Shown: in pieces, positions 1,901 through 25,324 of the stretch | Numbering within the stretch: position 1 is the stretch's first letter | How the letters are laid out: every line of letters starts with the position of its first letter | Origin: an uncultured Alphaproteobacteria bacterium | Lineage (GTDB): Bacteria > Pseudomonadota > Alphaproteobacteria > Rs-D84 | Reading direction: 5' to 3' | Assembly: GCA_934230415.1 (NCBI GenBank) | Contig: CAKQEW010000001.1 | Coordinates: 12,258-76,257 of the forward strand | Length of the DNA: 64,000 bases | Made by a program: the position numbers and the translations under genes | Notes under the pieces: model-generated | Databases searched by the model: none | Seen by the model: the letters and a program-made list of their open reading frames with translations, nothing else | What the model was told of the DNA's origin: nothing

Positions 1901-3154
1901 TTACTGTTCAACACGTTTCAGAACCAAACTGGCGTTTGTTCCACCGAATCCGAAACTGTTGCTGATGGCGACATCAACCTTGCGCTTCTTGGCGACATTC
2001 GGCACCAGGTCAAAATCACCAACGGCATCTTCTGGGTTTTCAAGGTTGATTGTTGGTGGCACAATGCCATCGCGGATGGCCAATGTGCAGAATATCGCCT
2101 CTACGGCGCCGGCGGCCCCCAGCAAGTGTCCCGTCACAGATTTCGTTGACGACATTGAAACCGGTGCATCACCAAACAATGTTTTCACCGCCGCCAATTC
2201 ACCAATATCCCCCAGACCGGTTGATGTACCATGTGCATTGACGTAATCAACATCTGACGGCTGCAAACCGGCATCACGCAATGCCGCGCGCATCGCACGC
2301 AGGCCACCCTCGCCACCTTCGGCTGGGGCGGTGATATGATACGCATCACCCGACAGACCGTATCCGGCAACCTCGGCATAAATCTTGGCACCACGCGCAA
2401 CGGCGTGTTCGTATTCTTCCAGGATTAAAATTCCCGCACCCTCTGACATGACGAAACCATCACGATCCTTGTCCCACGGACGCGATGCCGCGGTTGGATT
2501 ATCATTGCGTGTGGACAATGCCTTCATTGCATTAAAACCGGCAATACCAATTACATCAATTGCGCCTTCGGTTCCACCGGCGACCATAATATCGGCATCC
2601 CCATGTTCAATCAGACGGGCCGCTTCGCCAATAGAATGCGCCCCGGTCGCACATGCGGTCACAACAGCCAAATTCGGTCCCTTTAATCCATACTTTATGG
2701 AAATGTGTCCCGCCGTCATGTTGATAATTGATTTCGGAATAAAGAACGGACTGATACGGCGTGGGCCACCAGTATACAGTTCAACACAATTTTCGTAAAT
2801 AGATGTCAAACCACCGATACCGGCACCAACAGATACGCCAAAGCGTTCTTTGTCGCCATCATAATCAATCAATCCAGCATCACGCAACGCCTCGTCTGCG
2901 GCGACAACACCATACGCGATTGATTTGTCCATTTTACGTAATTCTTTTGGATTCAACACAGATTCCGGATTATATTGGCCCGGTTCGGTCCCATGAATCG
3001 GCATACCGGCAATCTGGGTCGCCAGCGCAGACGCGTCAAACGTATCAATTTTACGAATCCCAGACTTACCCGCGACAACATTCTGCCACGCATATTCAAT
3101 CCCCGTACCAACCGGCGATACAATCCCCATACCTGTGATAACTACTCTTCTCAT
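1901..3154 (-). CDS. fabF: 3-oxoacyl-[acyl-carrier-protein] synthase II
   Basis: 417 aa. MRRVVITGMGIVSPVG N-terminus, active-site Cys context (TACATGAHSIG), His-His pair (YVNAHGTST...GHLLGAAG). Typical KAS II length. Confidence 0.9.
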   Translation of the reverse strand: MRRVVITGMGIVSPVGTGIEYAWQNVVAGKSGIRKIDTFDASALATQIAGMPIHGTEPGQYNPESVLNPKELRKMDKSIAYGVVAADEALRDAGLIDYDGDKERFGVSVGAGIGGLTSIYENCVELYTGGPRRISPFFIPKSIINMTAGHISIKYGLKGPNLAVVTACATGAHSIGEAARLIEHGDADIMVAGGTEGAIDVIGIAGFNAMKALSTRNDNPTAASRPWDKDRDGFVMSEGAGILILEEYEHAVARGAKIYAEVAGYGLSGDAYHITAPAEGGEGGLRAMRAALRDAGLQPSDVDYVNAHGTSTGLGDIGELAAVKTLFGDAPVSMSSTKSVTGHLLGAAGAVEAIFCTLAIRDGIVPPTINLENPEDAVGDFDLVPNVAKKRKVDVAISNSFGFGGTNASLVLKRVEQ

Positions 3155-3275: not shown

Positions 3276-3509
3276 TTATTTCTGGTGCGCTTCAATATAT
3301 TTCACAGCATCACCAACTGTATTCAATTTCGCAGCTTCTTCATCTGGAATTGTGATATCAAATTCTTTTTCTACTTCCATAACGAATTCTACAACATCCA
3401 AAGAATCAGCACCCAAATCGTTAACGAATGTAGAAGTTTCTGTAATCGTATCTTCCTTTACATTCAATTTTTCAGCTACGATTTTTTTTACTTTTTCAAA
3501 AGTTGTCAT
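3276..3509 (-). CDS. acpP: acyl carrier protein
   Basis: 77 aa with the LGADSLD phosphopantetheine attachment motif. Directly upstream of fabF. Confidence 0.9.
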
Positions 3510-3596
3510 TTTTTATCCTTTGTTTCGGTTAAATTTGTGGCCCACCCAGGGGCGTCATTACTTAAAACTATCATTTTACAGGACGGGTGTCAAGAA

Positions 3597-3626
3597 ATTA
3601 TAACAAACGATAACAACACTTGACAA
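3597..3626 (-). promoter_or_regulatory. candidate sigma70 promoter for acpP-fabF (TTGTCA-18-TATAAT on minus strand)
   Basis: Minus strand reads ttgtcaagtgttgttatcgtttgttataat, about 90 bp upstream of the acpP start. Confidence 0.3.
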
Positions 3627-3642
3627 AAACACATTTCGGTGA

Positions 3643-4641
3643 TTACGCCATTACATCTGATAATAATGTGTTCATATTTGCACGCAAATCTTCGCGATCA
3701 GACGCCCAAACCAATTGTCGCATCAGGAATTTGTTTACATCATCCATTGTGACATTTGGTGCGCCCGCCGATGCGGCCACCGCGCGCCACGCATGACGCG
3801 GATCGGTCAAATGACCGCGCCCACGCCCCGGGAAAACCCAGCGACCATTTTGTGGCAAATCCTGCAATAACACCACCGCCGCATCTGATAACGGCCGATC
3901 ACACCACGTATCATGATTAAAATCCAAATCAGCCCAGCGCATTGCAAACACCTGGGATTTTGGTGCAAATCCATAAATCAGCATAAAAAACGCCGCACGC
4001 AGATTCTGGTTTTTCATATGTTTGATTTCACGAACCAGACGATAAAACACTGATTTATTCATCGGACGCACGCGGCGGTTCTGGGGAACCTCTGGCAAAT
4101 CGTCAATTGGCCCAGACGAAACATAGCCAACATCACGCGCGTATGAAAACATACTCTGTAATAATTCCTGCATACGACCACGAATTGCCGGCCCAGATAT
4201 TTTTTCAATCACGTGCACACAGTCATCACGCGTAATATCTGAAATATTTTTTGCGAACAATTCCGACAAATGCATATTAATCGCCCGCATCAATTTGTCA
4301 CGCGACGCTGGCGTGCGACGAACCCGCGCCGTCATATACATGTCTATGAATTTACGAAATGTAATTTTACGCCGGCGAACCGCAATCGGTGCATCGGCAC
4401 GCGCCAGCGCATCAGATACCGCGCTGCGCGCATCTTCTATGTCCATATCTGGATAATTACCGATGATAATGCGACGGTCACGCCCACGCACGCGATGGCG
4501 CACAAAAAATGTTTTGACCCCACGACTGGTTATATACATGCGCAGACGTGGTTCTGACAAGTCTTGGACAACATCAAAACCCGCACCAGGGGCCGGCAGA
4601 TTATCCAAAATAAACGGATTAAAAAAGAATTGATGTGCCAT
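3643..4641 (-). CDS. P4-type tyrosine integrase homolog, apparently C-terminally truncated or degenerate
   Basis: N-terminus matches the P4-integrase arm-binding domain (DUF4102-like): ...PRLRMYITSRGVKTFFVRHRVRGRDRRIIIGNYPDMDIEDARSAVSDALA. The central region resembles the core-binding/catalytic fold (LIYGF..MRWADLDF). The protein ends about 35 aa after the region aligning to the pre-HxxR segment, and no catalytic Tyr is evident. Confidence 0.6.
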   Translation of the reverse strand: MAHQFFFNPFILDNLPAPGAGFDVVQDLSEPRLRMYITSRGVKTFFVRHRVRGRDRRIIIGNYPDMDIEDARSAVSDALARADAPIAVRRRKITFRKFIDMYMTARVRRTPASRDKLMRAINMHLSELFAKNISDITRDDCVHVIEKISGPAIRGRMQELLQSMFSYARDVGYVSSGPIDDLPEVPQNRRVRPMNKSVFYRLVREIKHMKNQNLRAAFFMLIYGFAPKSQVFAMRWADLDFNHDTWCDRPLSDAAVVLLQDLPQNGRWVFPGRGRGHLTDPRHAWRAVAASAGAPNVTMDDVNKFLMRQLVWASDREDLRANMNTLLSDVMA

Positions 4642-4665
4642 GGCGGCCTCTTTCGTTTTTTATGT

Positions 4666-5082
4666 TTATTTCACATTTGCATATTTTCGCGACCAGAAAT
4701 ATTTTTTTGCATTTTCCAGTTCTTCGTACCGACGTTGTTTTACAAAATACATTCTGTTATTTGCATGGTTGGCACAGCGCATCTGGCAACACGTACGTTC
4801 CGGTTCAAAGAACCAGCACTGGTCACGCAACACGATTGGCGCCGGGCTGGAACCAAAAAACGGCGCATCAATCACAGAATCTATTTTCTGGTACTTTATG
4901 CACGCACAGACAGAATATGATTGTTCCAAACGTTCCAACCGGTGCGTTATCGCATCAAACGCCATATCCGCACCGACACGCGCACGTGCACACCGCGAAA
5001 CCAACGCATTGTATTCTGCACGATCGGCCGCGCGTTTATCGGCACTGGTTTTCAAATAATATCTGATTTTTTCAACAAGCAT
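4666..5082 (-). CDS. Cys-rich paralog family protein P1 (unknown function)
   Basis: 138 aa. N-terminus MLVEKIRYYLKTSADKRAADRAEYNALV and C-terminal ..ANH..YFWSRKY tail shared with 6 neighbouring paralogs. 8 Cys. Confidence 0.6.
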   Translation of the reverse strand: MLVEKIRYYLKTSADKRAADRAEYNALVSRCARARVGADMAFDAITHRLERLEQSYSVCACIKYQKIDSVIDAPFFGSSPAPIVLRDQCWFFEPERTCCQMRCANHANNRMYFVKQRRYEELENAKKYFWSRKYANVK

Positions 5083-5083
5083 A

Positions 5084-5476
5084 TCATCGTTCCTGTGAAT
5101 ATTTTGTGGGCCAAAATGCCTTTACCTGGCGACACATATCCTGGTATTCATGCAATTTTTCAATGTATGTGTGATTCGCCGCCGAAAAAGAACAGTTTTT
5201 CTCACGACATGGACTGTCCCATTTAAAGCAACTGCATTCTGACTGGGTCGTAAACGCATCGCAGCCGATGATATCCACCACCCGTTCCTTGACACAGGCA
5301 TGCGCAAAAAACATATCTTCATCCGGCAACAAATCCAAGCATATATCCTGGTATGCCAAATCCATTTCAGAATATGCACGATTACATTTACCAACCAGCG
5401 CAATATATTCCGCATGATCCGCCAGGCGTCGTGCCCGTGGTGTATTCAAACGATATTTGATTTTTTGTATTAACAT
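5084..5476 (-). CDS. Cys-rich paralog family protein P2 (start taken at MLIQKIKYRLNT)
   Basis: Family N-terminus after the internal Met. GGGGG RBS upstream of ATG at 5474-5476. The longer six-frame ORF extension is probably not used. Confidence 0.55.
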   Translation of the reverse strand: MLIQKIKYRLNTPRARRLADHAEYIALVGKCNRAYSEMDLAYQDICLDLLPDEDMFFAHACVKERVVDIIGCDAFTTQSECSCFKWDSPCREKNCSFSAANHTYIEKLHEYQDMCRQVKAFWPTKYSQER

Positions 5477-5487
5477 ATGTACCCCCG

Positions 5488-5901
5488 TTATCTGACACGC
5501 GAATATTTTTTCGCCCAAAAATTATCCACCGTACGCATCAGTTCACGCAAACGACCACGCGCCAAAAAGAATGCATGATTTTTTTCATGACACGCACAAC
5601 TGACCCGGCCACAGAAACCATTTGCCTTTTGCGGTGCAAAAAATGGGCAATAATCATTACGCACGATTATCGGCAAACATGCATTCAATGAATCCTGTAA
5701 ATATTCATCCATACGATACGGGATGCGCATAATACATGCCGGCGCCCCAGATTCAGAATTACCCTGCAATTCATCCTGGCGTTGTTTGCACAGTTTTTTC
5801 ATATTGGCCAATTTTCTGTTCAGCGCATTGAATTCTGCCAAATCTGCGTCGCGTTTTTTCTTGTCCGTTTTTATATAGTAAATTATTTTATCAATCAACA
5901 T
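5488..5901 (-). CDS. Cys-rich paralog family protein P3
   Basis: MLIDKIIYYIKTDKKKRDADLAEFNAL... AAGAGG RBS. C-terminal FWAKKYSRVR. Confidence 0.6.
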   Translation of the reverse strand: MLIDKIIYYIKTDKKKRDADLAEFNALNRKLANMKKLCKQRQDELQGNSESGAPACIMRIPYRMDEYLQDSLNACLPIIVRNDYCPFFAPQKANGFCGRVSCACHEKNHAFFLARGRLRELMRTVDNFWAKKYSRVR

Positions 5902-5924
5902 ATCTAGAACCTCTTTGTACTACT

Positions 5925-6344
5925 TTACTTGCCGTGGGTGCCACGCCATTTTTTCCCGGTAAAATTACGATACGCACGACATGCCGCATCATACTCCTGT
6001 TTTGCCTGAATCAGTTTTTGGTTTGCCGCATAGTGTTCGCAATCCACCTGGTCACACGCGTGTTTTTCTGAAAAATGCGAACAATGTTCTGGGACAAAAA
6101 TATCCAACGAATGATCCGCGTCTGGACAATATTCTGACGAGTCATAGCGAACACGTTTCACACAATTTTCACAATCAAATCGTGGTGTATCTGGCCCAAC
6201 AAACAACGTTGTTGTCACCGCATCACGTGCAAATGACAGATTAGTCGCCGCAATTTGGCACCCAATTGTCAGCATTTTTACCTGGTTATCATCCTGGCGA
6301 CGGCGCCGTGCCCCTATGAAGTATTTAATTTTTTCAAATAACAT
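5925..6344 (-). CDS. Cys-rich paralog family protein P4
   Basis: MLFEKIKYFIGARRRR... AAGGAG RBS. Cys-rich middle. Confidence 0.55.
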   Translation of the reverse strand: MLFEKIKYFIGARRRRQDDNQVKMLTIGCQIAATNLSFARDAVTTTLFVGPDTPRFDCENCVKRVRYDSSEYCPDADHSLDIFVPEHCSHFSEKHACDQVDCEHYAANQKLIQAKQEYDAACRAYRNFTGKKWRGTHGK

Positions 6345-6360
6345 TTATACACTCCTTTGC

Positions 6361-6711
6361 TTATTTTTCTTTTGCCATACATGACTGCATTTTATTTTTC
6401 CAAAACATTCCCATATGCCATTCGTACAGTGTGCGATATTTACGCGCACGAACAATATTACGTACATCTGGGAAAATCGGACATGTATGATTCTGGCAAC
6501 CTGCCCCGTTTGCATTCAGACAATAATCATCGTCCAAGAACATCATGCATGAATACACACATGTATTCTGGGCCGCAATATTTGCGAATGCATCACGTTC
6601 TGCACGCAATGTATCTGCATATTTTTGCCCCAGGTATTTAAAATCCGCCCGATGCATGGCACGTGTTTTATGGTCTGTATTTAATAAATATTTTACTCGT
6701 TCACAGAACAT
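6361..6711 (-). CDS. Cys-rich paralog family protein P5
   Basis: MFCERVKYLLNTDHKTRAMHRADFKYL... ...FWKNKMQ C-terminus. Confidence 0.55.
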   Translation of the reverse strand: MFCERVKYLLNTDHKTRAMHRADFKYLGQKYADTLRAERDAFANIAAQNTCVYSCMMFLDDDYCLNANGAGCQNHTCPIFPDVRNIVRARKYRTLYEWHMGMFWKNKMQSCMAKEK

Positions 6712-6719
6712 TGTTTTTC

Positions 6720-7115
6720 CTATTTTTCACGACGCGACTTTAATTTATTTGCATAAAAATTTGCCAGCATTTTATCGTACACTTCGCGTTGCTGGCGTGC
6801 CAGACACCACTGATTAATATACGACTGCATTGGACAACACGTATATGTTGCCCGACATCTATTCGCCTGAAAATTCTGGCAATCATGGCGTTCCTGAATC
6901 TGACCTGTCTTTGGATTTTCCACAAACACCTGGCATGCTGTTTCACGCCCAGTATATTCACCGCACGGGACATGCACGGTCATTTTTTCATATGCATCCA
7001 TTTCATCCCTGTACGTATCAAAATATCGCCGAAATAATTCACCGTATTCCGCCCGATCAGCCAAACGTGTTTTTTTATCAGTCTTTAATAAATACACAAT
7101 GTTATCCAGTATCAT
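6720..7115 (-). CDS. Cys-rich paralog family protein P6
   Basis: MILDNIVYLLKTDKKTRLADRAEYGELF... ...NFYANKLKSRREK. Confidence 0.6.
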   Translation of the reverse strand: MILDNIVYLLKTDKKTRLADRAEYGELFRRYFDTYRDEMDAYEKMTVHVPCGEYTGRETACQVFVENPKTGQIQERHDCQNFQANRCRATYTCCPMQSYINQWCLARQQREVYDKMLANFYANKLKSRREK

Positions 7116-7130
7116 TTTGCACCCCCGGCG

Positions 7131-7520
7131 TTATTTGCTGTTGTTTTTATGCGCGATACGGGCATCACGCCAGAAATGTTTTACCATATCATGCGCCACG
7201 CGCCATTTTTCATATGCGATGTCATATTTGTGCCGTGCAGGATACGATTTGCATCCGGTTACATTGCACATACAATCACCCCTGAAATGCGGGCAAATAT
7301 CTGTATTGTAATACGAGAAGCAAGGAAAATCATCCGCAGGATTTTCGCCTTCGTGAAACGTCACGCGAACACAGGCGCCTTCTCTCATTTCAGTGTATGC
7401 ATCAGACGCCACCCGCGCCAGTTGCTGTTCCTGCTGTTTCAGTTCTTGATAACGCAAACGATCGGCCACGCGCGTTTGTGCATCAGTTGCTATACGGTAC
7501 CGTATCATATCAATCAGCAT
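7131..7520 (-). CDS. Cys-rich paralog family protein P7
   Basis: MLIDMIRYRIATDAQTRVADRLRYQEL... AAGGAG RBS 7 nt upstream of ATG. ...HFWRDARIAHK. Confidence 0.6.
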   Translation of the reverse strand: MLIDMIRYRIATDAQTRVADRLRYQELKQQEQQLARVASDAYTEMREGACVRVTFHEGENPADDFPCFSYYNTDICPHFRGDCMCNVTGCKSYPARHKYDIAYEKWRVAHDMVKHFWRDARIAHKNNSK

Positions 7521-7538
7521 CGCAGACTCCTTTATCTA

Positions 7539-9335
7539 TTACGACACTTTCAGTGCATTGATAAACGCACTCTGTGGGATTTCAACATTCCCAAATGTGC
7601 GCATACGCTTTTTCCCCTCCTTCTGCTTCTCCAACAGTTTGCGCTTGCGGGTGATATCCCCACCATAACATTTCGCGGTTACATCCTTGCGATATGCCGC
7701 GATTGTTTCACGCGCAATAATTTTGCCACCGATTGCCGCCTGCAGTGGAATCTTGAACTGGTGACGTGGAATTAAATCTTTTAATTTTTCCACAATCTGA
7801 CGGCCACGCCGTTCGGCGAACATGCGATGACACATAAACGATAACGGTTCAACATTTTCATCATTGACCAGAATTGAAACCTTGACCAAATCAGACGGCT
7901 GGTACCCATTGACGACATAGTCAAACGATGCGTACCCCGATGATATAGATTTCACCCGATCATAGAAATCAAATACAATTTCCGCCAATGGCAACTGGTA
8001 CACCAATACGGCGCGATTACCAACATACGACACATTTTCCTGGACCCCACGGCGTTCCGAACACAGCGACATAATTCCGCCCATGTATTTATCAGGCATC
8101 ATAATCGTTGCGCGTACCCATGGTTCTTCAATAGATTGAATTTTCGTCACATCTGGCATATCCGCCGGATTTTCCAAATCAATGGTCGTGCCATCGCGCA
8201 TATGCACCTTGTACAACACACTGGGTACCGTATTTATCAGTGACAGATTGAATTCCCGCGCCAGGCGTTCACTGATAATTTCCATATGCAACAATCCCAA
8301 GAAACCGCAACGCAACCCAAACCCCAGCGCAGACGACTTTTCCGTTGTAAACATAAATGACGCGTCATTCAATGCCAGTTTTTCCGCACTGTCGCGCAGG
8401 TCTGGATAATCATCGGCGGATACCGGGAAAAACGACGAAAACACCACCGGCACCGATGGCTTGAATCCCGGCAATGGTTCAGACGCACCGGCCGATTTTG
8501 CATCGGCAATCGTGTCGCCAACCCGGCAATCATGAATTGTTTTCATCCCGGTAATAATAAATCCGATTTCACCCGTATCCAATGCGTCCGTATCAACCAT
8601 TTTGGGGGTAAAGTATCCGATTTTTTCAACCGTGTATTCGGCACCTGTTGCCAAGAATTTTATTTTCTGGCCACGCGACAGGCGCCCATCAACCACGCGC
8701 ACCAACACCACCACGCCCAGATATGAATCATACCACGAATCCACCAACAGTGCGCGCGTTGGCGCATTTTCATTTCCATGCGGGGACGGTAATTTTTTTA
8801 CAATTTCTTCCAGTAATTCTGGGACGCCGGCACCGGTCTTGCCCGAAACACACATGGCATTTTCCGCGTCCAGCCCGATAACATCGGCAATCTGTTCACG
8901 CGTTGCGGCAACATCACTGGATGGCAAATCAATCTTGTTCAGCACCGGCAGCATTTCCAAATCATTGTCCAACGCCAGATACGCGTTTGCCAGCGTCTGG
9001 GCCTGGACCCCCTGGGTCGCGTCAACCAGAATCAACGCGCCTTCGCACGCGGCCAGGCTGCGCGATACCTCGTACGAAAAATCCACATGTCCCGGCGTAT
9101 CCATCAAATTCAGCTGATACACCTGCCCATCACGCGCATGATAATTCAGACGCACCGTCTGGGCCTTTATCGTGATACCACGTTCACGTTCAATATCCAT
9201 AGAATCCAGAACCTGGGCCTTCATCTCGCGCGATTGCAGACCGCCCGTATACTCAATCAACCGGTCAGACAGTGTTGATTTACCATGATCAATATGCGCA
9301 ACAATGGCAAAGTTTCTGATATTTTTCTGATGCAT
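7539..9335 (-). CDS. lepA: translation elongation factor 4
   Basis: [18 protein letters not shown]1 motif, [13 protein letters not shown]. Full-length LepA-like C-terminus. Start chosen at MHQKNIRNF by analogy with E. coli LepA. The ORF extends to 9410. Confidence 0.9.
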
Positions 9336-9422
9336 GCGGCAATGATACACCAGTATATGATGATTTTCAACCGTATTTTTTGCAAAAAACCGGTGCACCA
9401 TTTGGCGCACCGTTCAATCTGA

Positions 9423-10644: not shown

Positions 10645-10674
10645 AAAAAAATGCGCCAATGGCGCATTTTTTTA
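10645..10674. terminator. Bidirectional terminator (aaaaaaatgcgccaatggcgcattttttt)
   Basis: Palindrome with A-run and T-run between convergent rbfA and the 237-aa surface protein gene. Confidence 0.65.
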
Positions 10675-11385
10675 TTCAATCCAAATACTGGCATATGTCG
10701 TTGCAGTGGCACTGCCCACAGGAACCTGGACGTTGGCCTTGGAAACCGTCACCGTGCCGGCATTGGCCGTCACACTGGTCACCATGTTACCAGAACCAGA
10801 AACCGTAACATTGCCACCCGTACCAGAATTTAATAAATTTTGTTTCTTGTCAATGTTGCCCTGTAATGTCGTATCAGCGGCCTTGTACGCAGTGTCCATA
10901 TCGTCTACTTTGCTTTCCAGGTCACTAATATCTGCCCCAACCAGGGATGCTGCCTGCTTGGCCATTTCATTCGCAACCGCCATTGATGGATACTTGTCCG
11001 TAGAATTTATATCTGCAGAAAAACCTGTCTTATCCGTTACCTTGTTCAGATTTGTTTCGGCAACCTTTTGCTGATACGTACCATCAGTATTCGTGCCAAC
11101 CGTATCATACAACATGGTCGTTCCAGAATACGTTGGCGTACCGGTTGTATACGTTGTATCCGTGGCAGAAATAACAACCTTACCCGCATTTGTACCGCTG
11201 GTCGGTGTGGTAACCGCAACGTTGGACCCCGCAACAATGTTCGTTTTGGACACGATATCCGCGAATGCGGGCGCCGCCACAAACAATGCAACAAACGAAC
11301 CGATAAAGATCTTCTTAATAAAATTCATATCTCTACATTCTGCTGTACACAATATTACCAGAAATTCCCCAAACGGGGCAAGCAC
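10672..11385 (-). CDS. secreted surface repeat protein, paralog 1 (237 aa)
   Basis: Signal peptide MNFIKKIFIGSFVALFVAAPAFA. Shares a ~70-aa identical block with the 521-aa paralog. C-terminus ...ATTYASIWIE. Confidence 0.6.
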   Translation of the reverse strand: MLAPFGEFLVILCTAECRDMNFIKKIFIGSFVALFVAAPAFADIVSKTNIVAGSNVAVTTPTSGTNAGKVVISATDTTYTTGTPTYSGTTMLYDTVGTNTDGTYQQKVAETNLNKVTDKTGFSADINSTDKYPSMAVANEMAKQAASLVGADISDLESKVDDMDTAYKAADTTLQGNIDKKQNLLNSGTGGNVTVSGSGNMVTSVTANAGTVTVSKANVQVPVGSATATTYASIWIE

Positions 11386-11435
11386 CTTTTACGGTATGGC
11401 GCAAATTTTTTACGCCATACCATATTCGTCATGCA

Positions 11436-13001
11436 TTAACGACCGATTTTTTCCCATGCGTATGTTTTTACGTTATCAACAACTTTCATCGTCAATGTAT
11501 ATGTACCGTCACTGGTGATATCGGCATTGGCTGTACCAGGGGCCGTAATTTTATCTGTAATATCGACTGCCTGCAATGCTGTATCTGCTTTGCCCAATGA
11601 TGTCTGAACATCAGGTGCCAACTTTGCCTTAGTAACATTCTTATCAGGAATCTTTACTGTTATCACTGCGTCATTTGCAATCATACCTGTCGCAATCTGA
11701 CCAGTGGTAACTCCGCCGCTAGCATTCGTGATAAGGGCTTTGTTCGCTGCGTCCGCACCCTGGGCCGTACTTACCTTGCCAGCGATACTAGTTTTATTGG
11801 TTGCAATATCGTTCTTGTTCGTTGTGATTTGCGTAACCAAGTCTTTCGTTACACCAGAGTTAACTGCAGCCATCTGGTTTGTGTCCAACGCCGCCTGCTT
11901 GTTATTCCATGTCGTCTTTTGTTCAGCTGTAACATGGATATCCCCATTTTTAATGTGGGTATCGTATGATGCTACCTTGGTACTGTTGATACCAGATTTG
12001 TATGCGTCACTGCCTTCAATAGTTGTGACACGATTTGTCAATGCGTTTACTGCATCTGATGTCGCAACAGTGGCTTCCTTGGTAATTGTGACATTGCCTT
12101 TGCCGTCAGCGGTAATCCCAGTAACAACATTACCAGTACCAGAAACCGTAACATTGCCACCCGTACCAGAATTTAATAAATTTTGTTTCTTGTCAATGTT
12201 GTCCTGTAATGTCGTATCAGCGGTTTGCAATGCTGTAATGGCACTTGCATTTGTTGATATCCCCGATTTATTGGTTGCAATATCGTTCTTGTTTGTTGTG
12301 ATTTGATCAACCAAGGCTTTCGTCGCACCAGAGTTAACTGCAGCCATCTGGTTTGTGTCCAACGCCGCCTGCTTGTTATTCCATGTCGTCTTTTGTTCAG
12401 CTGTAACATGGATATCCCCATTTTTAATGTGGGTATCGTATGATGCTACCTTGGTACTGTTGATACCAGATTTGTATGCGTCACTGCCTTCAATAGTTGT
12501 GACACGATTTGTCAATGCGTTTACTGCATCTGATGTCGCAACAGTGGCTTCCTTGGTAATTGTGACATTGCCTTTGCCGTCAGCGGTAATCCCAGTAACA
12601 ACATTACCAGTACCAGAAACCGTAACATTGCCACCCGTACCAGAATTTAATAAATTTTGTTTCTTGTCAATGTTGCCCTGTAATGTCGTATCAGCGGCCT
12701 TGTACGCAGTGTCCATATCGTCTACTTTGCTTTCCAGGTCACTAATATCTGCCCCAACCAGGGATGCTGCCTGCTTGGCCATTTCATTCGCAACCGCCAT
12801 TGACGGATATTTTTCTGTGGAAGTTGCATCTGCAGAAAAATTTGTCTTATCCGTTACCTTGTTCGCTTTCTGTTCGGCGGCGGCGGTAATCGCATCAGCT
12901 TTATCATTAACATATGATACAGATGCGATATCGGCGCGGGCGGCAGATGCCGTCATAACTGTGATTACAGAAATCGCCAGAATGCTTGTTAATCTTTTCA
13001 T
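11436..13001 (-). CDS. secreted surface repeat protein, paralog 2 (521 aa) with internal 158-aa tandem duplication
   Basis: Signal peptide MKRLTSILAISVITVMTASAARA. Ser/Thr/Asn/Gly-rich repeats (NSGTGGNVTVSGTGNVVTGITADGKGNVTITKEATVATSDAVNALTNRVTTIEG) present twice. C-terminus ...KTYAWEKIGR. Confidence 0.6.
   Translation of the reverse strand: MKRLTSILAISVITVMTASAARADIASVSYVNDKADAITAAAEQKANKVTDKTNFSADATSTEKYPSMAVANEMAKQAASLVGADISDLESKVDDMDTAYKAADTTLQGNIDKKQNLLNSGTGGNVTVSGTGNVVTGITADGKGNVTITKEATVATSDAVNALTNRVTTIEGSDAYKSGINSTKVASYDTHIKNGDIHVTAEQKTTWNNKQAALDTNQMAAVNSGATKALVDQITTNKNDIATNKSGISTNASAITALQTADTTLQDNIDKKQNLLNSGTGGNVTVSGTGNVVTGITADGKGNVTITKEATVATSDAVNALTNRVTTIEGSDAYKSGINSTKVASYDTHIKNGDIHVTAEQKTTWNNKQAALDTNQMAAVNSGVTKDLVTQITTNKNDIATNKTSIAGKVSTAQGADAANKALITNASGGVTTGQIATGMIANDAVITVKIPDKNVTKAKLAPDVQTSLGKADTALQAVDITDKITAPGTANADITSDGTYTLTMKVVDNVKTYAWEKIGR
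11790..12737. repeat. ~474-bp near-identical tandem duplication inside the 521-aa surface protein gene (copies ~11790-12263 and ~12264-12737)
   Basis: Antisense six-frame ORFs 11704-12306 and 12355-13026 share more than 110 identical residues at a 474-nt offset. Confidence 0.7.
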
Positions 13002-13089
13002 TTCCCAAAACCTTTCTATATTTTAACCCAGTATATAAAGCCTGACCTGTGGGGATGTGACGTGATGCGCCCCACCCCACAGTTTTTTA

Positions 13090-14160
13090 TTATTCTGCTG
13101 TACGTGAAATATCTTCCCACTGATAACCAATTGTTGAATCCCACGTCAGAACATATTTTGCATTAGAGCCAATTTTGTCAGCGGCCGGTGCTGGGATGGC
13201 TGCTTCGGCTGTTGTTTTGGCAACATTTGCTGTGCTCTGTGCAGCTGCGGCGGCCTCTGTATTGGCCTGGATTGTCGCAGCATAACCGTTATAGGTCGTT
13301 ACTTTGTCTGCTGTGATACCAGATTTCATAACCGCACTGTCATTGATTGTCGTGATGTCAGATGTGTTCTTTTCAACCGCTGTTTTCAAGGCTGTTTCAT
13401 CGTACTTGTCGGCCGCAATGGTGATTTTGCCATCTGCAATAGAAACCGTAACATTATCCCCACCAACCAAGTTTTCAGCTGTCAACTTGTTCTGTTTTTT
13501 ATCCAATTCAGTACCAACTTCTGTCTTGGTATATGCATCCGTGATGCCATAGCCCGCCAATGTTGTCGCCTTGTCAGCTTTCTTTCCAATTTCTGTTGTC
13601 AATTCTGTCTTTACAGCATCCGCAGCGCCCTTGGCTTCATATGTATTGCCCAAATTCAATTCGGTAATTGCATCAGCAATGGATTTCGCAACAGAACCGT
13701 CTTCTGTGGCAGTGCCGTTCAACTTTGTAATGGCGGCGGTGTTACTTCCAACTTTTGCTGTCAAATCAGTCAATCCTTCGGTCGTGGCGATACCCACTGT
13801 GCTGATTGTACCATCTTCTTTGATTTCAATGTTTGTACCAGCTGTCAGCTTGTTCTGTTTTTTACCCAATTCAGTATTCATGTCAGTGGTGGTTGTATAG
13901 TTTGCAAATTTACCATCAACCGTGCTGATTTTGCCTTCCAATTCTGTTTTGGTCGCAGATGCGGTCTCTTGTGTTTCAAACTTTGCATTGGCGGCTGCCT
14001 GTGTATAAACATCAGCGGTATTTGCCTTTAATGCAATCGCGTCTGCATTTGTCTTTGCCTTGGCATCAACATATGCGGTTGATGGGATGGCGGCGTTGGC
14101 AGAGTTTGCAGCAACAACACCCAGCATCACGGTTAAAATACCTGCGGTTAATTTTTTCAT
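13090..14160 (-). CDS. secreted surface repeat protein, paralog 3 (356 aa)
   Basis: Signal peptide MKKLTAGILTVMLGVVAANSANA. Repeats ...KKQNKLTAG...TDLTAKVGSNTAAITKL... C-terminus ...YQWEDISRTAE. Confidence 0.6.
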   Translation of the reverse strand: MKKLTAGILTVMLGVVAANSANAAIPSTAYVDAKAKTNADAIALKANTADVYTQAAANAKFETQETASATKTELEGKISTVDGKFANYTTTTDMNTELGKKQNKLTAGTNIEIKEDGTISTVGIATTEGLTDLTAKVGSNTAAITKLNGTATEDGSVAKSIADAITELNLGNTYEAKGAADAVKTELTTEIGKKADKATTLAGYGITDAYTKTEVGTELDKKQNKLTAENLVGGDNVTVSIADGKITIAADKYDETALKTAVEKNTSDITTINDSAVMKSGITADKVTTYNGYAATIQANTEAAAAAQSTANVAKTTAEAAIPAPAADKIGSNAKYVLTWDSTIGYQWEDISRTAE

Positions 14161-14208
14161 TTTTCTTTCCTTTCTTTCGTTTTTTTAATTGTTATTTTAT
14201 TTCTTGAA

Positions 14209-15216
14209 TTATTCACCCGTTGTGGTGCCATCGCTCTGGGTTACATCCAACCAAACCATTGCATCGCCCTGAACAGCCAATACACACTGCTTTACGCCGG
14301 TCTGGCAATCAACGCTTGGATATGGGATAACCTTGCTGAAACGCTGGTTCAATACATCTGAACCACCCTCTTCGGTCAATGCCTTGGTAATCGCGTCCGT
14401 AACATCTGTGGATGTCTGGGCACCGTTCACCTTGTTTGCCAATGCAGAATCCAGTTTGGCTTCGGTTACCGCACCATCTTGAATCTTGACCGATGTGATT
14501 GCGCCATCTTTGATTTTATCTGTGTTAATTTCAATACCTTCGGTAATCGCCTTGTTCAATTCTGTGTCAACGTATGACATTACCGCACCGGCGGTCGGGT
14601 ATGTACGCGCTTTGTCTGCTTCACTGGCGGTTGCGTTCAATTCCGCAATCTTGTTCGCAGCGTCTTCAGCGGTATATTCCAGTTTATCCTGTTTGCCACC
14701 AACCGCTGTTTTCAATGCAGTGATTTCACCCGCGTTTGTTGATGCGGCTGTTTTTGCTTCGTTTGCGGTCGTTTGCGCATTGCCGGCCTTGGTATCCGCA
14801 GCAGCAGCAGCAGCAGCAGCCTTATCTGCGATTGTCTTGGTCGCGGCCAAACCGGTCTGGGCGTCATTAACCGTTGTTGTCAGTGATGTTAAATCCGCCG
14901 CATTGGCCTTGGATTCTAATTCTGTTTTGGTTGCCAGGTTGTCCAATTCCGTCTTGTTCGCCTTCTTGTCCAATGCGGTTTTAATCACACCATCATCAGA
15001 TGTAATTGCGTTGGTAATCTGGTTGGTTACTTCGGTTTTGCTGGCATAATCAGCGTCGGTAATTTCTGTTTTCAACGCAGTCACCGTTTCCGCAACAGCA
15101 TTTGCTTTGTTATCAACGTACCCCTTGCTGGCAATCTGGGGTGCCGCCATCGCCGAACCAGTGGACAGCATAATCGCCGCCATAAATCCAGAGAATGCAA
15201 TGTTCTTTACTTTCAT
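14209..15216 (-). CDS. secreted surface repeat protein, paralog 4 (335 aa)
   Basis: Signal peptide MKVKNIAFSGFMAAIMLSTGSAMA. Ala/Thr-rich coiled-coil-like repeats, an AAAAAAAA tract. C-terminus ...MVWLDVTQSDGTTTGE. Confidence 0.6.
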   Translation of the reverse strand: MKVKNIAFSGFMAAIMLSTGSAMAAPQIASKGYVDNKANAVAETVTALKTEITDADYASKTEVTNQITNAITSDDGVIKTALDKKANKTELDNLATKTELESKANAADLTSLTTTVNDAQTGLAATKTIADKAAAAAAAADTKAGNAQTTANEAKTAASTNAGEITALKTAVGGKQDKLEYTAEDAANKIAELNATASEADKARTYPTAGAVMSYVDTELNKAITEGIEINTDKIKDGAITSVKIQDGAVTEAKLDSALANKVNGAQTSTDVTDAITKALTEEGGSDVLNQRFSKVIPYPSVDCQTGVKQCVLAVQGDAMVWLDVTQSDGTTTGE

Positions 15217-15281
15217 TTTCGTTCCTTTCTTTATTTTTGTCCTAATCTCCGTTATGGCGGGAATTTAGACACAAAACTGTT

Positions 15282-17153
15282 TTATTCACCTACTATCTCT
15301 ATCTGGGTCCACGCTTTGCTGGTGCCATCATATACGTACAGACCACCAGATGTTGGCGCCGCAACGCCCTGGTTTTCCAAGGCACGGTTCGCGGTTTCCT
15401 GGGCCGCGGCCGCCGCATCTGCCGCATCTGCCGCCGTCTGGGCCGCCGTATCTGCCGCCGTTTTGGCCGATTCCGCCAGTGTATGGTTTGTCGTTATATC
15501 CGTGGACAGCGCAACCAATTTGCCATCAATCACCGTTTGTGAATATGTTTCAGATTTCTGGTAATAGTTACCCAATGCACTGGCGTCAGCCTTGGTCGCC
15601 AGGGCATCCGTTGTCGCATAATCCGCCAGCGACGATTTTAATGCGTAATCATTTAATTCAGACTTGTCCGCCTTGGTCGTCAGGGCATCCGTTGTTGCAT
15701 AATCCGCCAGCGACGACTTTAATGCGTAATCATTTAATTCAGACTTGTCCGCCTTGGTCGTCAATGCATTCGCCAGGGCATCCGTTGTCGTCGTATCAGC
15801 CTTGGCATCCAATGCAGTCTTTAACGCATAATCGTCCAGCGATGTTTTATCAGCCTTGGTGTCCAATTGTGCATTAACGTATTCGGTCTTGGCATAGTTG
15901 GTCAATGCAGATTCCATATCACCCGCAACAACATTGGCGATTTTATCATCAACCTCTGTCTGGGAATATGTCTGTTCCTTGGTATAATAATCGCCCAGTG
16001 CACTGGCGTCAGCCTTGGCCGCCAATTTTGTATCAACGTCTGTAGTTGTGGCATAATTATTCAGTTCGGATTTATCCGCCTTGGTCGCCAGGGCGCCCGC
16101 CAACGCATCCGTTGTCGTTGTATCCGCCTTGGCCGCCAATTTCGTATCAACGTCCGCGGTCGTGGCATAATCCGCCAATTCAGACTTGTCCGCCTTGGTC
16201 GCCAATTTTGCATCAACGTCCACGGTTTTTTCATATTCACCCAGCGCCAAACTAATTGCGTTGTTAATCGCGTTGTTCATTGCGGTGATATCCGCCTTTA
16301 ACGCCAATCCACTTTCCACATCGGCGGTTTTTGCATATGGTGTCAGGTCAACATCCGCACCATCACCCTTGGGCCCTTGGGGACCAACCGGCCCCTGTTC
16401 ACCCTGGGGTCCCTCTGGCCCGACCGGTCCTTCGGGTCCGACCGGACCAATCGCACCAGTAATCGCAGATTTCGCAATCAATGGTGTCCAACCAGATTCA
16501 CCACGATAGCGCCAATTGATATATTCGTCGTCGGCATCAATTTCAATTTCACGCCCATCACGACCCGCAATCGTACCAATTGCATCCTTTAAATTTTCCA
16601 AATCAACAGAAATTTCGTTTGTTACATCATCAATCAGAACGAAACCGTCACTCTTGGGTGACAATGCATCTTGTTTATTCTGCAACTGGCCCGCCAAATC
16701 ATCACCACGATCGTTCAAGCCATCAACATCACGACGCAGCTGATCAACGTCCGCCTGGAGCGCCGCCGCCACCGATGGAACCAATGTTGAATTTCCACCA
16801 CCAGACGTGCCAGGATTTTGTGGCTTTATTGCTGTTGTACCACCCGTTGTGCCACCACCCAAATACTTACCAATTGATAAACGTGGCGTTGTGCCCGCAC
16901 GCACCGTTCCCGACGCGGTCGTGGTTGTTGCGCCCGTCGTCGTGCCGGTTGTTCGCGTTGCCGTCGGTGTCACACGTACAGAACCACCACGAACGGCCGT
17001 TGTCGTACCATTTCCACCCGTTGCAGATGCCGCAGATGAATACGTTCCGGCACCACCCAACGTACGCACAGTGGACGCGCCATATGCCCCAGAAACCGCG
17101 GCACACAGCACACACACAATCGCAACCGTTGAAATTTTAAGGTCTTTTTTCAT
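15282..17153 (-). CDS. secreted collagen-like repeat surface protein, paralog 5 (623 aa)
   Basis: Signal peptide. Gly-X-Y collagen-like tract GPVGPEGPVGPEGPQGEQGPVGPQGPKG. 27-aa tandem repeats (TKADKSELNDYALKSSLADYATTDAL). C-terminus ...KAWTQIEIVGE. Confidence 0.6.
   Translation of the reverse strand: MKKDLKISTVAIVCVLCAAVSGAYGASTVRTLGGAGTYSSAASATGGNGTTTAVRGGSVRVTPTATRTTGTTTGATTTTASGTVRAGTTPRLSIGKYLGGGTTGGTTAIKPQNPGTSGGGNSTLVPSVAAALQADVDQLRRDVDGLNDRGDDLAGQLQNKQDALSPKSDGFVLIDDVTNEISVDLENLKDAIGTIAGRDGREIEIDADDEYINWRYRGESGWTPLIAKSAITGAIGPVGPEGPVGPEGPQGEQGPVGPQGPKGDGADVDLTPYAKTADVESGLALKADITAMNNAINNAISLALGEYEKTVDVDAKLATKADKSELADYATTADVDTKLAAKADTTTTDALAGALATKADKSELNNYATTTDVDTKLAAKADASALGDYYTKEQTYSQTEVDDKIANVVAGDMESALTNYAKTEYVNAQLDTKADKTSLDDYALKTALDAKADTTTTDALANALTTKADKSELNDYALKSSLADYATTDALTTKADKSELNDYALKSSLADYATTDALATKADASALGNYYQKSETYSQTVIDGKLVALSTDITTNHTLAESAKTAADTAAQTAADAADAAAAAQETANRALENQGVAAPTSGGLYVYDGTSKAWTQIEIVGE
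15600..15762. repeat. 81-bp tandem repeat (2 identical copies) encoding the 27-aa TKADKSELNDYALKSSLADYATTDAL unit
   Basis: Identical DNA blocks visible at 15601-15681 and 15682-15762. Further degenerate copies lie upstream. Confidence 0.6.
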
Positions 17154-17216
17154 AACTCTCTCTGAACGATTTTTATTTTATCATATTTTGCGAATCGGCG
17201 TCAATACCTTTCTGTG

Positions 17217-17951
17217 TTAAAATTCATATCTGATACCAACGGATATAGAATTATCCAGAATCAGGCCGATTTTATTTTCAAACGATGCCGTGAATGTACC
17301 CGCGTGCCCCGGTTCTGTGGAAACATATTCAAACCGACGCGTGTGCGTTGTGCCATTCAAACCCGCCAAACGATAGCGAACATCCAACACCAAATTGTCG
17401 TCCAATTCCTGGGTAAATCCAACCATCAGACCCGCCATCGGCGATACAGATGTCTTGGTTCCATCACCAGATACAAAATTTTCCCAATCCAGTTTTGTCG
17501 TCGGCGCCGCCAAGCCCAGGCCACCACCAACATACAGACCATTGGTGAAATCATAATACGCATTCGCCATCAAATACGGCACAGACAACTTAAAATCAAA
17601 TCCATTATCGCTGTCTGAAAATTGCGTGATATAGCCGGCTTCAACCTCGCCCCGCCAGAAGTAACCAAAGTGGCGACCGGCAGACAAACTGGCCCCGAAT
17701 ACCGGTTCAAATGAATAACTGTCCGAACTGAAATCCGCATCTGTCCCAGGATAATCCGACGAATACTTGTTTTTCCAATTCAGGAAATTCATTTCGGCAC
17801 GACCGGCGATGTACCAGCCTGTTTTTTCTTTGTCTGTGTAATTATATGTGACGTTATATCCACCGTTTTTGTCCGGCTGAACATAGCTGGGTGCCGCAGA
17901 TGCCGCGGATGTCAGCCCCACCAGAACAAATAATGACACTAATTTTTTCAT
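17217..17951 (-). CDS. outer-membrane beta-barrel protein (OmpA-like/OmpW/Opa-like porin family)
   Basis: Signal peptide MKKLVSLFVLVGLTSAASA. Alternating amphipathic beta-strand pattern, aromatic girdle residues. C-terminal ...GIRYEF ending in Phe. Confidence 0.65.
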   Translation of the reverse strand: MKKLVSLFVLVGLTSAASAAPSYVQPDKNGGYNVTYNYTDKEKTGWYIAGRAEMNFLNWKNKYSSDYPGTDADFSSDSYSFEPVFGASLSAGRHFGYFWRGEVEAGYITQFSDSDNGFDFKLSVPYLMANAYYDFTNGLYVGGGLGLAAPTTKLDWENFVSGDGTKTSVSPMAGLMVGFTQELDDNLVLDVRYRLAGLNGTTHTRRFEYVSTEPGHAGTFTASFENKIGLILDNSISVGIRYEF

Positions 17952-24671: not shown

Positions 24672-24805
24672 ACAAAACCCCTTTCCTTTTCCGTAATTTT
24701 ATCATAAATTTCGCCCCCATTCAAATACATTTTATAAACAATTACGCGCACCAAACAGTGCGCGTAATATCTATCATTTGTGAAACGCACCGATGGCGCA
24801 TTTTT

Positions 24806-25171
24806 TTACTGTGCAACAATCACATAACGGCGTTTCAAAACCGGTTCGCCACATTTTGGCGCATGTGCCTGGCACGCATTACATGGTGCCGGCTTGGCCG
24901 CTGGGACAATTGCCTGGCGATCATGACGTGGGGCCTGGCCCAGGTTGTCGCGTGCATACAAATCCGCGCAGCGTGTGTTGCGATAAACAATCTTTTTACC
25001 ATTGTTCATATCGTAAATATCGTTGTTAAAGTGACGGCCACGTTCACCCATTGTGTAAACGCAATCTTCGCCATCCTGGGTGTACTGAATACCCCCCTGG
25101 TAATAATCATAGCTGCCACCGCATGCCGCCAGGGCCGCCAGCGCAAAAACAGAAACCAAAACCTTTTTCAT
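24806..25171 (-). CDS. hypothetical lipoprotein
   Basis: Lipobox ...LAALAACGGS. 121 aa. Antisense to the spurious N-terminal extension of the fba ORF. Confidence 0.4.
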   Translation of the reverse strand: MKKVLVSVFALAALAACGGSYDYYQGGIQYTQDGEDCVYTMGERGRHFNNDIYDMNNGKKIVYRNTRCADLYARDNLGQAPRHDRQAIVPAAKPAPCNACQAHAPKCGEPVLKRRYVIVAQ

Positions 25172-25324
25172 GTTATCCCCCGTTCAGAGTTTCAATATTC
25201 CCAATCCGGCCCCCGATTCGGATATTATTGTTGCACAAAAACGCCTGTTGTCAAGGCACACAAAAAACATCAATCGCACATGCACCATAAATATGATATA
25301 ATTGCCGCAAAAGGATGGAACGAT

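Follow-up and report, generated by a model that had tools for sequence, protein, structure and literature searches.

In a 64,000-nucleotide (nt) stretch from an uncultured Alphaproteobacteria bacterium of the order Rs-D84 (GCA_934230415.1, contig CAKQEW010000001.1, positions 12,258 to 76,257 of the forward strand; the whole stretch is referred to as the window), seven small cysteine-rich genes stand in tandem between lepA and a gene encoding an integrase-like protein. The seven genes constitute one previously undescribed protein family, and the novelty lies at the protein-family level. The family appears to be confined to gut Alphaproteobacteria of the order Rs-D84, that is, "Candidatus Enterousia" and relatives. 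It is a birth-and-death tandem family under scaffold-preserving purifying selection, with copy numbers from 0 to at least 8 and with fusions and truncations. The neighboring integrase-like protein is, as judged from its sequence, a catalytically dead and domesticated core protein of the Rs-D84 order rather than an active recombinase. With respect to function, we tentatively suggest, at somewhat less than even confidence, that the array proteins are metal-stabilized adaptors that dock on an acidic partner, with acyl carrier protein (ACP) as the leading candidate.

The genes of the block are all read from the minus strand and are listed below in the order of transcription (coordinates are those of the window; aa, amino acids; pI, isoelectric point).

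7539-9410, minus strand: lepA (EF4), first gene of the probable operon; an open reading frame (ORF) 96% identical to lepA of the nearest species (L001)
7131-7520, minus strand: c1, 129 aa; conserved cysteines C50, C76, C85 and C90
6720-7115, minus strand: c2, 131 aa; third cysteine shifted (C61, C79, C87, C93/94)
6361-6711, minus strand: c3, 116 aa; shortest cap, and without a clear orthologue in the nearest species
5925-6344, minus strand: c4, 139 aa; its orthologue in L001, L004 and L005 forms the C-terminal half of a two-domain fusion
5488-5901, minus strand: c5, a family member of 137 aa
5084-5476, minus strand: c6, 130 aa when read from ATG
4666-5082, minus strand: c7, 138 aa; adjoins the integrase-like gene and carries the invariant Y8, C61, C89, C98 and C103
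3643-4641, minus strand: integrase-like gene (pseudo-integrase), 332 aa, pI 10.2; homologue of P4-type integrases, predicted to be catalytically dead
3510-3642, minus strand: intergenic region between the integrase-like gene and acpP, 133 nt, ultra-conserved
3276-3509, minus strand: acpP, ACP, pI 4.4; directly downstream of the integrase-like gene and the spacer
1901-3154, minus strand: fabF (beta-ketoacyl-ACP synthase II); conserved end of the syntenic block

The ORF map thus bears out the seven intact, co-directional genes that an earlier note, made from the letters of the window, had placed between lepA and an integrase homologue. The gaps between c1 and c7 measure 1-24 nt, c1 begins 18 nt past the end of lepA, and the integrase-like ORF follows the end of c7 by 24 nt on the same strand, where the earlier note had placed it 25 bp downstream. 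A Shine-Dalgarno-like motif precedes the ATG of each of the seven genes by 5-10 nt, in keeping with the good ribosome-binding site (RBS) that each had been credited with. As to the lengths given earlier, 116-144 aa, the lower bound stands but the range is 116-139 aa, since 144 aa corresponds to a reading of c6 from an alternative TTG at 5518 that overlaps c5. The start codon of lepA is likewise ambiguous (GTG at 9410 or ATG at 9335). Because the spacing is tight and there are no convincing promoter or terminator signals inside the block, lepA through the integrase-like gene probably form one transcript. A promoter scan of the block, which is weak evidence, found promoter-like sites to be no commoner than in shuffled sequence.

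The paralogy of the seven proteins is far above chance (profile E-values of 1e-28 to 1e-47), and their pairwise identities are 21-27%. In the alignment of the seven, the N- and C-terminal helices and the cysteines are conserved, and each protein carries 6-9 cysteines; the conserved termini and the cysteine count reported earlier both hold. Likeness between the array genes at the DNA level is limited to repeats of 37 nt at their 5′ ends, with 73-76% identity. Together with the low identity of the proteins, this agrees with the view of an old, diversified family of moderate DNA identity. Neither a transmembrane nor a signal-peptide-like stretch was found in any of the seven (the maximum 19-residue Kyte-Doolittle value is at most 1.09), and charged residues make up 8-11 of the first 25. 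These features confirm that the proteins are cytoplasmic and without signal peptide.

Extending the alignment to 122 diverse members reveals five invariant residues, Y8, C61, C89, C98 and C103 (c7 numbering), and three that are nearly so, D20, F129 and W130. The family consensus reads xxYxxxT..D..EY..L...C...CxxF.....C....CP....N..Y..A...Y.........FW..K, and the usual spacing of the four invariant cysteines is C-x(20-35)-C-x8-C-x4-C. The family is basic, with a median pI of 9.1, and its charge is unevenly distributed: the N-terminal part has a mean charge of +3.4 and the C-terminal part +4.7, vs -1.5 for the middle. The C-terminal tails of the array proteins are positively charged. Between orthologues, the N-terminal region is 53% identical, the middle 39%, and the C-terminal region 42%. 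Hence, the "hypervariable middle" of the earlier note is correct insofar as variability peaks there and the insertions and deletions are located there, but the entire protein evolves fast.

Searches with the seven proteins against Pfam, NCBIfam, PHROGs, and PADLOC gave no meaningful match at E up to 1, a PDB sequence-profile search with the family gave nothing below E 1.6, and Foldseek of the c7 model against PDB and BFVD gave nothing below E 0.5. That the family could not be recognized from the letters is thus matched by the databases. A HMMER search of 1.84 billion cluster representatives identified 249 clusters (50% identity) at E up to 0.001; among the matches listed (150 of the 249 clusters), all are 56-276 aa long and represent single or double copies of the same domain. 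A word-indexed homologue search with the 122-sequence profile returned four proteins only and brought nothing new. No relatives of the family were found on viral contigs or in BFVD.

The AlphaFold2 model of c7, built on the 122-member alignment, is very confident (predicted local distance difference test [pLDDT] 95.6, predicted template modeling score 0.83). It comprises a short helix (residues 2-11), two long helices (14-44 and 106-135) and three strands (46-49, 62-67 and 83-88), and in it the four invariant cysteines fall at the ends of the strands and in the loop that precedes the last helix. In this predicted fold, a small three-stranded beta/Cys4 cap sits on a basic stalk of antiparallel helices. 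The zinc-binding adaptor family that had been proposed earlier as one option is compatible with this predicted structure.

To place the array in a wider context, genomes were scanned, one per species, with the 332-aa integrase-like protein as query. The scan gave 171 matching stretches, 80 of which were fetched; locus counts given here refer to these 80 species-level loci, in which both flanks are present. The family hidden Markov model (HMM) was iterated over all ORFs of the fetched loci and its matches were then mapped. The fetched stretches derive from gut metagenome-assembled genomes labeled "Candidatus Enterousia", uncultured Alphaproteobacteria or Rickettsiales, and their integrase-like proteins are 61-80% identical to the query over its full length. 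Gene order is constant in all 80 loci, on one strand: lepA, 0-8 family genes, the integrase-like gene, acpP, and fabF. Every array gene matches the one HMM, except for ACP paralogues in five loci; between lepA and the integrase-like gene only family members and these ACP paralogues were found. The number of copies per genome, with the number of genomes in brackets, is 0 (4), 1 (21), 2 (21), 3 (21), 4 (6), 5 (1), 6 (2), 7 (2), and 8 (2), which puts the seven copies in the window at the upper end of the range. In three genomes lepA directly adjoins the integrase-like gene. Twelve ORFs with two domain matches were recorded; ten are tandem fusions (two with a partial first copy), and the other two are short forms of 99-103 aa with the two terminal helices only.

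Two more distant loci extend this picture. In one (L094), at least eight copies follow a lepA orthologue that matches the LepA Pfam domains. In the other (L092, GCA_965320445.1), an array of at least four members is flanked by skp, ompA, and dnaX on a 6.8-kb contig on which no lepA, integrase-like gene, or acpP was found. The latter array stands apart from any integrase-like gene, which argues that arraying is a property of the family itself and not of its integrase-like neighbor. On the same contig two other small ORFs (156 and 139 aa, the second Cys-rich; 20-925) precede the array. Comparison with related genomes had been suggested earlier as a means to learn whether the array is a universal core feature unlinked to any recombinase. 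The answer is mixed. The array is near-universal and fixed, being present in 76 of the 80 genomes, but it is still linked to a recombinase homologue that is itself a fixed core gene; the array of the more distant L092 is without this homologue.

The array proteins diverge about four times faster than the integrase-like protein. Relative to the nearest species (L001; synonymous divergence, dS, of about 1), the nonsynonymous divergence (dN) is 0.03 for lepA, 0.05 for fabF, 0.15 for the integrase-like gene, 0.24 for c1, and 0.53-0.64 for c2, c6, and c7. The best-conserved copy is c1, with 68-71% identity to its orthologues. Over all genome pairs, the reciprocal-best family identity is about 60% where the integrase-like proteins are about 90% identical and about 34% where they are about 80% identical; a floor of about 26% is reached at integrase-like identities below 75%. 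Ordinary unequal homologous recombination, not site-specific recombination, would change the number of copies. No dN/dS above 1 was found, either within the species or pairwise; synonymous sites are saturated between species.

Rapid divergence, loss of the array in some species, and truncation of some members might be taken as signs of decay, with the genes as nonfunctional leftovers of former cargo. This explanation, to which we assign next to no probability, is contradicted by the data. Other metagenomes supplied three conspecific strains (L084-L086) in which all seven genes are undisrupted, so that ORFs and RBSs are preserved in four conspecific strains with the window included. The pooled pN/pS (the polymorphism counterpart of dN/dS, from pooled per-gene counts) in the strain with the longest flanks (L084) is approximately 0.24 for the array and 0.05 for lepA. 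Moreover, c7 of a second strain (L085, 3069-3485) differs from that of the window by 14 synonymous and 0 nonsynonymous changes, in a neighborhood where genes carry 0-6 synonymous changes, and an identical c7 protein is present on 16 contigs. The pattern in L085 suggests that its c7 is an imported recombination tract under strong purifying selection. Collectively, the intact genes in conspecific strains, the pN/pS of approximately 0.24, and the lack of nonsynonymous changes in c7 indicate that the array genes are functional. The four cysteines and the aromatic core, invariant in 122 sequences, and the very confident model also speak against decay, as does the fact that Rs-D84 genomes are streamlined to less than 1 Mb without a build-up of pseudogenes (PMC12306168).

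The integrase-like protein matches PF13356 (Arm-DNA-bind_3) at E 1.2e-7 with 32.1 bits (the Pfam cut-off is 27 bits) and the N-domain of a CP4-like integrase (PDB 3jtz) at E 0.002. It matches the PHROG 1 integrase at E 1e-25 over residues 33-298, and in a profile comparison its residues 53-239 align with residues 38-224 of lambda Int. Its core-binding (SAM-like/Phage_int_M) matches are weak, 16-18 bits and below the cut-off; PF22022 is recorded for most of its homologues. The arm-type domain and the PHROG match corroborate the degenerate P4-type integrase that had been linked to the array. The catalytic domain (PF00589, Phage_integrase) was not matched by the integrase-like protein at E up to 1, nor was it present in the best 120 of 1071 homologues. 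Alignments with lambda Int and three annotated phage integrases show Pro227 at the Arg-I position, deletion of the beta-hairpin with the catalytic Lys, and loss of the HxxR box. In addition, a segment of approximately 22 residues is missing, and with it the second His/Trp and the Tyr nucleophile. Nevertheless, the mean column identity of the protein is 76% over 41 species, and its dN/dS relative to L001 is 0.10. The lost catalytic residues together with the order-wide conservation lead to the conclusion that the protein has been domesticated, and it is presumably retained for DNA binding. An N-terminal extension (residues 1-18, MAHQFFFNPFILDNLP / MAHQFFFNPFILDNLPAP) is almost invariant and absent from the aligned phage integrases; it may be a protein-docking peptide. 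The structure model of this protein is only moderately confident (pLDDT of 71.5, with 40-79 in the C-terminal domain) and was not used for fold comparison.

Hence, relative to P4-type (Arm-DNA-bind_3/DUF4102) integrases, the window protein has kept the arm-type domain, weak core-binding matches and alignment with PHROG 1 and lambda Int, but it differs in having none of the catalytic positions, no tRNA or attachment (att) site, and an N-terminal extension, and in being a single-site core gene. There is a precedent for such a change of role: TnsF is a catalytically inactive derivative of tyrosine recombinases that serves as the DNA target selector of Tn6022-like Tn7 transposons (PMC10293859), that is, a recombinase fold without catalysis that is kept as a sequence-specific DNA-binding or DNA-bending protein. 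TnsF carries zinc fingers at its N-terminus and belongs to a mobile transposon, whereas the window protein is chromosomal, immobile, of P4 type, and without transposition genes.

A tyrosine-recombinase homologue directly beside an array of small genes nonetheless raises the question whether genes are shuffled here as cassettes by an active recombinase, as in integron, rAID, or shufflon systems, or whether a P4-like island with cargo was inserted recently. Phage P2, in which the small Cys4 regulator gene ogr also adjoins int, might be cited in its favor. In integron and rAID systems (the latter of Bacteroidales), an active recombinase acts on repeated inter-cassette recombination sites, and the cassettes belong to unrelated families. 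The locus in the window shares with them a tyrosine-recombinase gene next to a small-gene array of variable length, but here the recombinase appears dead, with its catalytic residues absent and the catalytic Pfam domain never detected. The gaps of 1-24 nt are without repeats and too short for attC-like sites, and all the "cassettes" are of one family. Neither cassette recombination sites nor a repeated intergenic element were found in the array, and no flanking direct or att-like repeats were found around 3600-7540. The sole tRNA in the window (tRNA-Pro, 1157-1233) lies beyond fabF and not beside the array; apart from it, Rfam gave no match in the region. The composition is unremarkable, with a G+C content of the array (0.39-0.47) within the range of neighboring stretches, and the synteny is identical in 80 species-level genomes. 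Since no adjacent tRNA, att repeat, or cassette site was found, the locus is not a mobile island. These data contradict an active recombinase-driven cassette system, which we regard as having only a very slim chance of being correct, and the reading of the layout in the earlier note as recombinase-driven or as a mobile element finds no support. It is possible that the array descended from an integrated element that became fixed in ancient times.

Kinship with P2 Ogr and P4 Delta was considered separately and rejected. A comparison of the family profile with P2 Ogr by hhalign gave a probability of 1.2% over 10 columns, and there was no match to Pfam Ogr_Delta; the point drawn from phage P2 is accordingly unsupported by relatedness. 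The resemblance consists of a small Cys4 protein with a C-x4-C knuckle, a covalent double domain in Delta like that in several array members, and the proximity of ogr to int in P2. However, the first cysteine pair is C-x2-C in Ogr and 20-35 residues apart in the array family, and Ogr is without the helical stalk.

The region between the integrase-like gene and acpP deserves attention in this context. Across 79 genomes the spacer (3510-3642) is more than 90% conserved at most columns despite the saturation of synonymous sites. The sole strong promoter-like site, with 11 of 12 matches, lies in it: TTGTCA-17-TATAAT at 3626-3597, just past the stop codon of the integrase-like gene and before acpP. 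A second TTGACA box is also present. A direct repeat, TTGTTAT-CGT-TTGTTAT at 3616-3600, overlaps the -10 box; the window has no second copy of it, but at this stringency it is no rarer than expected by chance. Further downstream, a leader hairpin (3556-3539) keeps its pairing through compensatory changes (GCTC/GAGC, GTTC/GAAC, GCCT/AGGC). No Rfam family matches the spacer. We infer that the spacer may be the operator for the pseudo-integrase.

What the array proteins do is approached best through their association with ACP. The canonical AcpP, encoded next to the block in every locus, is strongly acidic (pI 4.4) vs the basic family (median pI 9.1). In 5 of the 80 genomes, all in one subclade, an extra ACP is tied to the slot beside the integrase-like gene:

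L022, 4268-4915: fusion protein whose N-terminal PP-binding domain (scoring above the Pfam cut-off) is joined to an entire family domain
L023, 4326-4943: the same type of fusion
L034, 9313-9975: the same type of fusion
L028, 3840-4487: ACP-ACP gene directly upstream of the last family gene
L031, 9207-9578: separate ACP gene directly upstream of the last family gene

None of the six extra ACP domains has lost the DSL(D/S) serine motif. Between species whose canonical AcpPs are 75-95% identical, the extra ACP paralogues are 35-48% identical; the extra ACPs thus share the fast evolutionary regime of the array. The fused and split ACP pairs, together with the constant acpP neighborhood, are the only functional clue found.

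On the reading that we favor, tentative as it is, the four cysteines would hold a metal (Zn2+ or an Fe-S cluster) that stabilizes the cap. The conserved basic stalk would dock on a common acidic partner and the fast-evolving surfaces would diversify specificity, such that the proteins would act as adaptors or regulators. The best partner candidate would be ACP, with nucleic acid as the alternative. Acyl carrier protein is put forward because the array abuts acpP and because, in one subclade, a fast-evolving ACP lies upstream of or is fused to the integrase-proximal member.

Several points weigh against this reading. The ACP pairing is limited to one subclade and 5 of 80 genomes, and the same arrangement could arise if c7, the integrase-like gene and acpP had been duplicated locally and the integrase-like copy then lost. 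Moreover, the acidity of AcpP is not nearly matched by the extra ACPs (pI 5.0-6.8). Metal binding is deduced from the invariant cysteines and the model, and homology links the family to no function. A basic helical stalk suits nucleic-acid binding equally well. The four genomes without copies imply that the family is dispensable, for which an accessory or conflict role is a better fit than one in core lipid metabolism, and fast evolution with copy-number turnover is also typical of arms-race proteins. Finally, the L092 array adjoins neither lepA nor an integrase-like gene, and its contig is without acpP.

The basic stalk is also what would be expected if the array proteins were small metal-dependent nucleic-acid-binding or transcription factors, analogous to WhiB-like or DksA/TraR-type Cys4 proteins and possibly working with the pseudo-integrase, with the paralogues directed to different targets. 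This is possible, though on the unlikely side. The charge of the family resides on the two long helices, the four cysteines are invariant, and the proteins are cytoplasmic. Their genes are packed tightly with that of a pseudo-integrase of pI 10.2, which retains arm-type and core-type DNA-binding domains, and past the operon lies a promoter region that bears repeats and is conserved to an extreme degree. Genome reduction is strong in these bacteria (PMC12306168), and we assume that few classical regulators are left in them. None of the array proteins matches the profiles of DksA/TraR, WhiB-like, or LYRM (Complex1_LYR) proteins. WhiB-like (Wbl) proteins of Actinobacteria are lineage-restricted, small, and cytoplasmic; they carry four invariant cysteines and a basic C-terminal region, and a genome encodes several paralogues of them. 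By analogy only, the array family resembles them as a lineage-specific, multi-paralogue family of small Cys4 proteins; unlike them, it has another cysteine spacing, a predicted helical hairpin with a beta cap, and tandem instead of dispersed genes, and the two have no sequence match.

The dispensability in four genomes and the restriction to one lineage, together with fast birth-and-death evolution (0-8 copies, fusions, truncations), would also fit proteins engaged in conflict. These might be immunity or antitoxin-like proteins, anti-phage or anti-defense proteins, or effectors delivered by a nonclassical route, in an arms race of an obligate symbiont or parasite. The positively charged C-terminal tails and the proposed dependence of the hosts on partners (PMC12306168) can be accommodated in such a scheme. 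However, neither the seven proteins nor the integrase-like protein matches PADLOC at E up to 1, and the array proteins have no PHROG match. No toxin, secretion, or defense gene lies within the block in any of the 80 loci, a result that also speaks against the immunity or anti-defense gene array with recombinase that had been envisaged earlier. The absence of a signal peptide and of relatives on viral contigs or in BFVD points in the same direction; relatives of the integrase-like protein were not found on viral contigs either. In addition, overall dN/dS is below 1 within and between species, and a fixed core-chromosome site in a housekeeping operon is atypical of defense islands. Taken together, we consider a conflict role unlikely.

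Returning to docking on ACP, a known parallel is provided by LYRM proteins, which are small, basic, and helical, dock on acyl-ACP in mitochondria, and have no cysteine cluster. The likeness is again one of analogy: the array proteins are small, basic, and helical, and their association with ACP is suggested by fusion, pairing, and neighborhood. They differ in the missing Complex1_LYR match and in the presence of a cysteine cluster, and their ACP link is seen in 5 of 80 genomes. Carrying the analogy further, the array could be a diversified, metal-stabilized ACP-docking set, an alphaproteobacterial counterpart of the LYRM-ACP principle. With the order-wide dead integrase as a DNA-binding regulator at the ultra-conserved acpP promoter, it would form a new regulatory module through which these partner-dependent gut bacteria couple the status of scavenged lipids to other processes. 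We think this extended scheme improbable.

Other features of the window lie outside the block. Six further genes (237, 521, 356, 335, 623, and 244 aa) at 10672-17951 on the minus strand make up a second family of tandem paralogues. Its 237- and 521-aa proteins have signal-peptide-like N-termini and common repeat segments, and the 521-aa protein has a long internal duplication. Five of the six have no Pfam match, and the 623-aa protein has one collagen-repeat match below the cut-off; these are probably variable surface proteins. A 503-aa protein (24758-26269, plus strand) has a class-II fructose-bisphosphate aldolase domain in residues 199-502 (E 8e-91), preceded by an N-terminal extension of 198 aa; a published survey describes Rs-D84 genomes as being without class-II fructose-bisphosphate aldolase (PMC12306168).

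The order Rs-D84, to which Enterousia belongs, comprises bacteria with genomes of less than 1 Mb that lack the majority of biosynthetic pathways and for which an obligately symbiotic or parasitic life has been proposed (PMC12306168). Human and livestock guts widely harbor Rs-D84/Enterousia bacteria, which presumably rely on other cells. A genome of this size nevertheless spends approximately 3 kb on seven fast-diverging paralogues that are under selection and have no detectable relatives in sequence or fold, and this upkeep suggests that the family is important for the biology of the lineage. The gene next to the array provides a clear case of an integrase that has lost catalysis and become a core gene of a whole order. 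Whichever role holds, the family merits an entry as a domain of unknown function, and its confident model, invariant residues, natural fusions and numerous orthologues make it a well-defined object of study. If the ACP link is true, the array proteins would represent a new class of ACP partners; if they are regulators or conflict proteins instead, they would provide a handle on the lifestyle of this group of uncultured symbionts.

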